This document shows positions 44,564 through 44,674 of a stretch of DNA of 64,000 nt, piece after piece. The stretch is taken from NCBI RefSeq assembly GCF_003334255.1, contig NZ_QOWU01000002.1; one strand, given 5' to 3'. The first letter of the stretch is position 1, and each line of letters opens with the position of its first letter. The position numbers and the translations under genes are program-made. The DNA comes from Escherichia coli (GTDB taxonomy: Bacteria > Pseudomonadota > Gammaproteobacteria > Enterobacterales > Enterobacteriaceae). The notes under the pieces are model-generated. The model was not told the origin of the DNA, did no database searches, and saw only the letters and a program-made list of their open reading frames with translations.

Positions 44564-44609
44564 TTCCTTCTGCCGCCCGCTATCCGGGGCGGCCTTCCCT
44601 GCCGATTAG

Positions 44610-44620
44610 CCCCCCCCCCC
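44610..44620. repeat. Homopolymeric C11 tract
   Basis: GATTAGCCCCCCCCCCCTTTCC read directly; lies between the yaiO stop and the frmR operator. Confidence 0.9.
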
Positions 44621-44674
44621 TTTCCTCTTTGTTTTCCGACCACATTCACCGGATAAATTTTATTCTCCAGTGTT

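Follow-up and report, generated by a model that had tools for sequence, protein, structure and literature searches.

A C11 homopolymer between yaiO and frmR of Escherichia coli, probably a slippage-prone mononucleotide repeat without a role in frm control

The intergenic region between yaiO and frmR of the E. coli sequence analysed here (a stretch of 64,000 nucleotides, referred to as the window) carries an uninterrupted run of eleven cytosines, which raises the question of whether the length of this run has any bearing on the expression of frmRAB, be it through the promoter, the operator or transcription arriving from yaiO, or whether it is an ordinary repeat that drifts in length. The run and the two genes that frame it are as follows.

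44610 to 44620, plus strand: C11 homopolymer, a polymorphic mononucleotide repeat (direct reading, allele census, alignment and metagenome contigs)
43790 to 44563, plus strand: yaiO coding sequence, 257 aa, a YaiO-family outer-membrane beta-barrel protein (ORF and RefSeq annotation of identical sequence)
44752 to 45027, plus strand: frmR coding sequence, 91 aa (mapped RefSeq annotation and ORF)

Read directly from the window, the tract is CCCCCCCCCCC on the plus strand at 44610-44620 and corresponds to G11 when the minus strand is read. It begins 46 bp after the end of the yaiO stop codon (44563) and is followed, after 54 bp, by the inverted repeat of the FrmR operator, which starts at 44675. 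A preliminary description of this DNA had placed the run in 44606-44622, a span that encloses the actual tract, at about 45 bp from yaiO and about 55 bp from the operator; these values agree with the measured ones, and all of its coordinates are correct. Its remark that homopolymers of such length are uncommon also holds, the tract being the only run of G or C longer than six in the 64 kb, where the next longest is of six. In dinucleotide-preserving shuffles a mean of 0.01 C11 or G11 runs is expected per window, one of 100 shuffles containing such a run. The five C7 matches in the window all come from the C11 tract itself, and the shuffles hold about five. Over a 5-Mb genome approximately one run of this length is expected from composition, so that the tract, though uncommon, does not stand out statistically on a genome-wide scale. 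Its immediate flanks, GATTAG and TTTCCT, form no inverted repeat.

A 311-bp query around the tract found a match in 5,416 of 5,426 complete E. coli genomes, with match lengths of 307 to 311. Allele lengths were counted with constructs of 36 nt + Cn + 40 nt, using E-value cut-offs that pass perfect full-length matches only. BLAST identity bands had also been tried as a census and were rejected, the band of 99% or above having taken in partial alignments (144 as against 56 true C11 genomes). The exact-match census of the 5,426 genomes searched gave the following alleles.

C7 allele: 1197 complete genomes
C8 allele: 856 complete genomes
C9 allele: 313 complete genomes
C10 allele: 638 complete genomes, including MG1655, EMG2, C600 and J53 (the K-12 length)
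C11 allele: 56 complete genomes
C12 allele: 7 complete genomes

No C13 allele was found among the 5,426 complete genomes by exact match. Pure-tract alleles are thereby present in 3,067 of the 4,269 genomes carrying the tract region, a census with some noise from assembly length errors in which the allele classes are still lineage-consistent. C11 is a rare long allele, found in approximately 1.3% of locus-bearing genomes. Some 1,200 genomes have the locus and no exact pure-tract match; this remainder, characterised by sampling only, consists of interrupted alleles (CCCCACCCCC, CCCCACTCCC, CCCCACCACC, CCCCTATCCCC and GCCCCTC), flank variants and about 90 genomes in which an insertion sequence splits the tract. 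An independent set of 65 metagenome contigs yielded C6 (1), C7 (18), C8 (16), C9 (9), C10 (5) and interrupted or impure tracts (16), with C11 in none of the 65.

In an alignment of 16 genomes, all indels between yaiO and the operator fall in the tract. When 74 sequences were grouped by identical 210-bp flank haplotype, the commonest haplotype was found with C6 to C9, the second commonest with C7 to C9 and that shared by K-12 and the window with C9 to C11, giving three haplotypes with three to four tract lengths each; interrupted alleles sit on other haplotypes and keep 10-11 nt. As several lengths occur on identical flanks, no other site at the locus changes as fast as the tract, whose length shifts in single-base steps and faster than substitution occurs at neighbouring bases. 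The suspicion that the run is a hotspot of slippage is thus borne out by lengths of C6 to C12 across strains, with indels confined to the tract, and the comparison of E. coli genomes proposed in the preliminary description found the length to be variable, not invariant. A 67-aa minus-strand ORF (44446-44649) lies over the tract; a coding role was rejected, since the tract lengths are not multiples of three and therefore point to no coding constraint. In Escherichia whittamii, yaiO is present and CGCCCCAAACAC is found at the tract-equivalent position.

Downstream of the tract lies the control region of frmRAB, and the tract itself is part of a segment of DNA that not all strains possess.

44675 to 44727: FrmR operator, formed by a large inverted repeat that holds two type-I sites, one with G6 (44685-44690) and one with C6 (44712-44717) (sequence and Denby et al., 2016)
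44697 to 44725, plus strand: frmRAB core promoter, TTGACA-17-TAGTAT, alternatively TTGACA-15-TATAGT (promoter scan and Shimada et al., 2014)
40775 to 44648: accessory segment of 3.9 kb with yaiS-yaiP-yaiX-yaiO, hairpin and tract (blastn against the window and annotations)

The sole sigma-70 match has its TTGACA at 44697 and, after a spacer of 17, its TAGTAT at 44725, and sits within the operator palindrome; the promoter of the frmR-yaiO spacer has been given as TTGACA-15-TATAGT (Shimada et al., 2014; PMC3946193). The inverted repeat is centred at -29 and contains tandem type-I FrmR sites (Denby et al., 2016; PMC5146963), which places the predicted transcription start near 44730. The operator is kept in all lineages compared and in four Escherichia species, and FrmR is the same protein (WP_001141271.1) in the genomes fetched. 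The C-run of the operator (C6 at 44712-44717 of the window) appears as C5 in the complete assembly of K-12 DHB4 and as C7 in that of GF43; these are probably homopolymer miscalls, and if real they would alter one FrmR half-site.

The tract is situated 28 bp inside the right edge of the 3.9-kb accessory segment. In an ST131-type genome this segment is absent, tauA adjoins frmR and homology to the window resumes at 44649, while in O157:H7 a gene of an fbpC-type ABC transporter adjoins frmR and homology resumes at 44660. As different neighbours abut frmR, the interval 44649-44660, just upstream of the operator, is taken to be a recurrent rearrangement junction. Of four representatives of Escherichia species in which this operator was found, three have neither yaiO nor the tract. 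With regard to the segment itself, a yaiX-like LbetaH acetyltransferase ORF (43078-43788) is uninterrupted in the window. In K-12 records the yaiX region is matched in pieces, with IS2 annotated there; the intact ORF indicates that the window is a K-12-like phylogroup A sequence and not K-12 itself.

Two ways in which the tract might act on frmR directly can be weighed against this arrangement. An intergenic run of variable length on the 5′ side of frmR could be a phase-variable promoter element, its length shifting how the frmR promoter is spaced or phased, in the manner of the poly-C of Bordetella fim, and the preliminary description had likewise proposed that slippage could change promoter spacing. 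However, the tract lies outside any promoter spacer, at about -110 to -120 relative to the predicted start, and with 76 bp between it and the -35 hexamer downstream its length cannot alter the spacing of the core promoter. Conservation across lineages starts only at 44649-44660, with nothing conserved upstream of about -70 to -80, and ST131-type and O157:H7 genomes have the same promoter and operator and an identical FrmR but lack the tract. In total approximately 1,060 complete genomes (5,416 with the operator minus 4,358 with the tract region), about a fifth, have the operator and lack the tract region. A promoter element of this kind is accordingly highly improbable. It might instead be supposed that the tract, as an A-like G/C tract, is a distal, shape-read site at which an auxiliary FrmR contact aids DNA wrapping, given that the CsoR/RcnR family reads G/C tracts partly via shape and that distal wrapping of DNA has been proposed (Denby et al., 2016; PMC5146963). 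Type-I sites are, however, defined by a G/C tract between the AT-rich inverted repeat ATAC...GTAT (Denby et al., 2016; PMC5146963), which the tract does not possess, and in most genomes the tract is absent, interrupted or variable, making such a contact extremely improbable. As the promoter and operator module starts some 30-40 bp downstream of the tract and is present without it in a fifth of E. coli, the tract appears to play no part in the function of either. For truncations of Pfrm, nothing relevant was found in one biosensor preprint.

The other route by which the tract might reach frmRAB is through transcripts of yaiO, and in this regard two further features lie between the yaiO stop codon and the operator.

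44572 to 44593, plus strand: GC-rich hairpin just after the yaiO stop, with a 7-bp stem and an 8-nt loop (predicted fold; no U-tract next to it)
44592 to 44669, plus strand: 78-nt stretch rich in C (32) and poor in G (8), with the tract inside, a candidate Rho loading (rut-like) region (composition and fold)

Both arms of the hairpin, GCCGCCC (44572-44578) and GGGCGGC (44587-44593), are present as previously described, and the hairpin is kept in E. whittamii with a G-U-compatible change. It had been called terminator-like, but it is not a canonical terminator: directly after it comes CTTCCCTGCC and not a U-tract, and a terminator scan of the locus, in which a hairpin followed by U residues was looked for, returned no intrinsic terminator. 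A search of 44300-44900 against Rfam with a permissive E-value assigned no family, giving only chance microRNA-type matches on the operator palindrome that were far below gathering scores. Elsewhere in the window, three repeats of the REP/BIME type, at 47165-47242 (minus strand), 49271-49346 (plus strand) and 49370-49447 (plus strand), exceed the gathering threshold of the Rfam family naRNA4 (RF02564); they are ordinary E. coli extragenic repeats.

The stretch 44592-44669 starts 29 nt after the yaiO stop, is unpaired in the predicted minimum free energy fold and has a C/G ratio of 3.67; ranked among every 78-nt window of the 64 kb, both strands included, this is the 99.97th percentile. The abundance of C and scarcity of G persist across all allele types and extend to E. 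whittamii, even though the sequences diverge. In composition it resembles a rut site, being C-rich, G-poor, predicted to be unstructured and untranslated over 78 nt, and on this basis it is a candidate Rho loading site. There being no intrinsic terminator, termination here, if any, would have to be Rho-dependent. If the sequence around the tract has any function, it would be as such a loading site: yaiO transcripts would end via Rho downstream of the stretch, before or within the frmR promoter, and would be trimmed back to the upstream hairpin, which would then act as a protective 3′ end. Tract length would change Rho loading marginally at most and should matter little, since alleles with C7 and interrupted tracts remain C-rich (23-25 C versus 5 G). 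No 3′ ends of yaiO or frmR were found in the Term-seq supplements of Adams 2021, and a text search of the literature for yaiO termination returned only an irrelevant match.

From these features a role in contingency could be constructed, in which a Rho-dependent terminator is built around the poly-C and the amount of read-through from yaiO into frmRAB depends on the length of the run, giving heritable and reversible differences in an FrmR-independent, basal level of formaldehyde detoxification. The composition and predicted lack of structure of the stretch after the stop codon, the lack of an intrinsic terminator and the highly variable length of the tract all favour this, and no stronger activator of Rho than poly(C) is known. 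Against it are the C-rich, G-poor composition that survives in C7 and interrupted alleles, the absence of the whole arrangement from a fifth of E. coli and the lack of evidence for appreciable yaiO transcription; in addition, a single length was seen within each group of isolates with related names that could be picked out (four IAL72xx isolates, the pair EJN001/EBJ001 and the pair G1/2-G6/7), which would speak against rapid switching. Tuning of read-through in this manner is unlikely, and it is very unlikely that the tract is a contingency element in the full sense, with a length that, via Rho loading on the yaiO 3′ RNA, sets a heritable and reversible read-through bypassing FrmR. If it were, lineages of E. 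coli would differ in basal formaldehyde tolerance by way of a homopolymer outside any promoter. Control of read-through by tract length is thus a low-probability possibility, although tract length may have a small effect on read-through or on basal frm expression. A more trivial explanation would make the eleventh C an artefact, the true length being C10 as in K-12. The flanks of the tract are identical to those in K-12, and public assemblies do contain homopolymer errors (the C9 tract of DHB4 together with its operator run, and the operator run of GF43). Nevertheless, C11 with identical flanks is present in its 56 complete genomes from independent assemblies by many laboratories, and C12 alleles exist as well. 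Among the best 40 matches to the surrounding 24 kb, which are 99.6-99.9% identical (99.9% for most), at least 12 have C11, and other close matches have C10 or C12. A miscall is therefore improbable.

The C11 run is thus probably a mononucleotide microsatellite prone to slippage, located in the untranslated sequence 3′ of yaiO and without a role in frm control. The pure tract may have arisen from an interrupted C-rich ancestor, for example by a single A to C change in CCCCACCCCC that would yield C10, and would then have expanded and contracted through replication slippage. Repeats of this sort have a history in the study of E. coli: simple sequence repeats are said to have been surveyed by Gur-Arie and co-workers in 2000, in Genome Res 10:62, and mononucleotide repeats were reportedly applied to strain typing by Diamant and co-workers in 2004, in AEM 70:2464. 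The locus of yaiN, the old name of frmR, is presumably among the polymorphic mononucleotide repeats of the surveys by the Kashi laboratory. In a literature search, the yaiN/frmR repeat was not named in papers citing those surveys. According to a review citing Gur-Arie, A/T repeats make up 93% of the mononucleotide repeats of K-12 (PMC7015867), by which figure a long run of C is a rare type.

The tract also serves as a target for a mobile element. In strain NDM_12_14482, ISEc20, an IS110-like element of 1,449 bp, lies inside the tract as C6 / IS / C6 (fetched locus L003:3167-4615). Among complete genomes, approximately 88 records have the 87-nt tract region in two separate parts, and the same ISEc20 junction is present in about 100 records, an estimate from a spread sample. 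Five ISEc20 sites were examined, namely yaiO-frmR, an island of UTI89, focB in O145:H28, rtcB and an ETEC locus, and in all five of these independent insertions the element sits between C runs, the left one measuring C4 to C6 and the right one C4 to C7. As every copy is flanked on both sides in this way, a C-run-specific target is suggested. The usual empty site in focB is GCCCCTACCTCC; in O145:H28 a 5-nt deletion allele (GCCCCTACCTCC to GCCCCCC) has created a C6 run with a frameshift, and it is in that run that ISEc20 lies, while UTME-3 (one genome) has the focB C6 allele with the same flanking SNP and is free of the IS. The 227-nt non-coding left end of ISEc20 has a strong predicted fold (z = -3.05) and contains C5 and G6 runs, which would be compatible with a guide RNA. 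No literature was found on ISEc20 targeting. Insertion of ISEc20 is a consequence of the tract and not a function of it.

For practical purposes, the tract can serve as a typing marker of high resolution and as a sensitive test of how accurately assemblies render homopolymers, and where Pfrm is cloned for formaldehyde biosensors it is unstable and can be left out. It also shows where a small accessory islet ends and offers ISEc20 a place to insert. Its biological weight is otherwise little, and it would be of regulatory interest only if tract length modulates Rho-dependent read-through into frmRAB.

In relation to known systems, the presence of ISEc20 in C-run sites is reminiscent of the sequence-specific insertion of the IS110 family, such as that of IS621 into REP sequences guided by a bridge RNA; for ISEc20, a C-run target is suggested by five insertion sites, and a guide RNA would be putative. 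The tract is akin to the type-I sites of CsoR/RcnR regulators in being a G/C tract, and it lies at a distance of 54 bp from genuine FrmR sites with G6 and C6, but it differs from them in its flanks (GATTAG and TTTCCT), which have no ATAC/GTAT repeat, and in its variable length and purity. With the poly-C of Bordetella pertussis fim2/fim3 and the poly-G/C of Neisseria porA/opc it shares a slippage-prone run 5′ of a gene. Those runs, however, form part of the promoter or separate an activator site from the -10 (in porA/opc they lie between -35 and -10), whereas the yaiO-frmR tract comes after the yaiO stop and before frmR, not in the -35/-10 spacer, with no conserved site upstream of it; it falls beyond the conserved promoter module, and a fifth of genomes do without it. 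The likeness to Rho-dependent terminators and rut sites such as lambda tR1 and trp t′ consists of some 80 nt of C-rich, G-poor, unstructured RNA after a stop codon, with no hairpin plus U-tract, and for the yaiO stretch is one of composition and predicted fold. The closest counterparts are the intergenic mononucleotide repeats of E. coli, which are likewise uninterrupted non-coding homopolymers that vary in single-base steps and more than their flanks. The tract, an uninterrupted run above chance expectation with single-unit polymorphism that is confined to it and outpaces its flanks, shows no difference in kind from these and is an ordinary mononucleotide repeat with the textbook length drift of bacteria.
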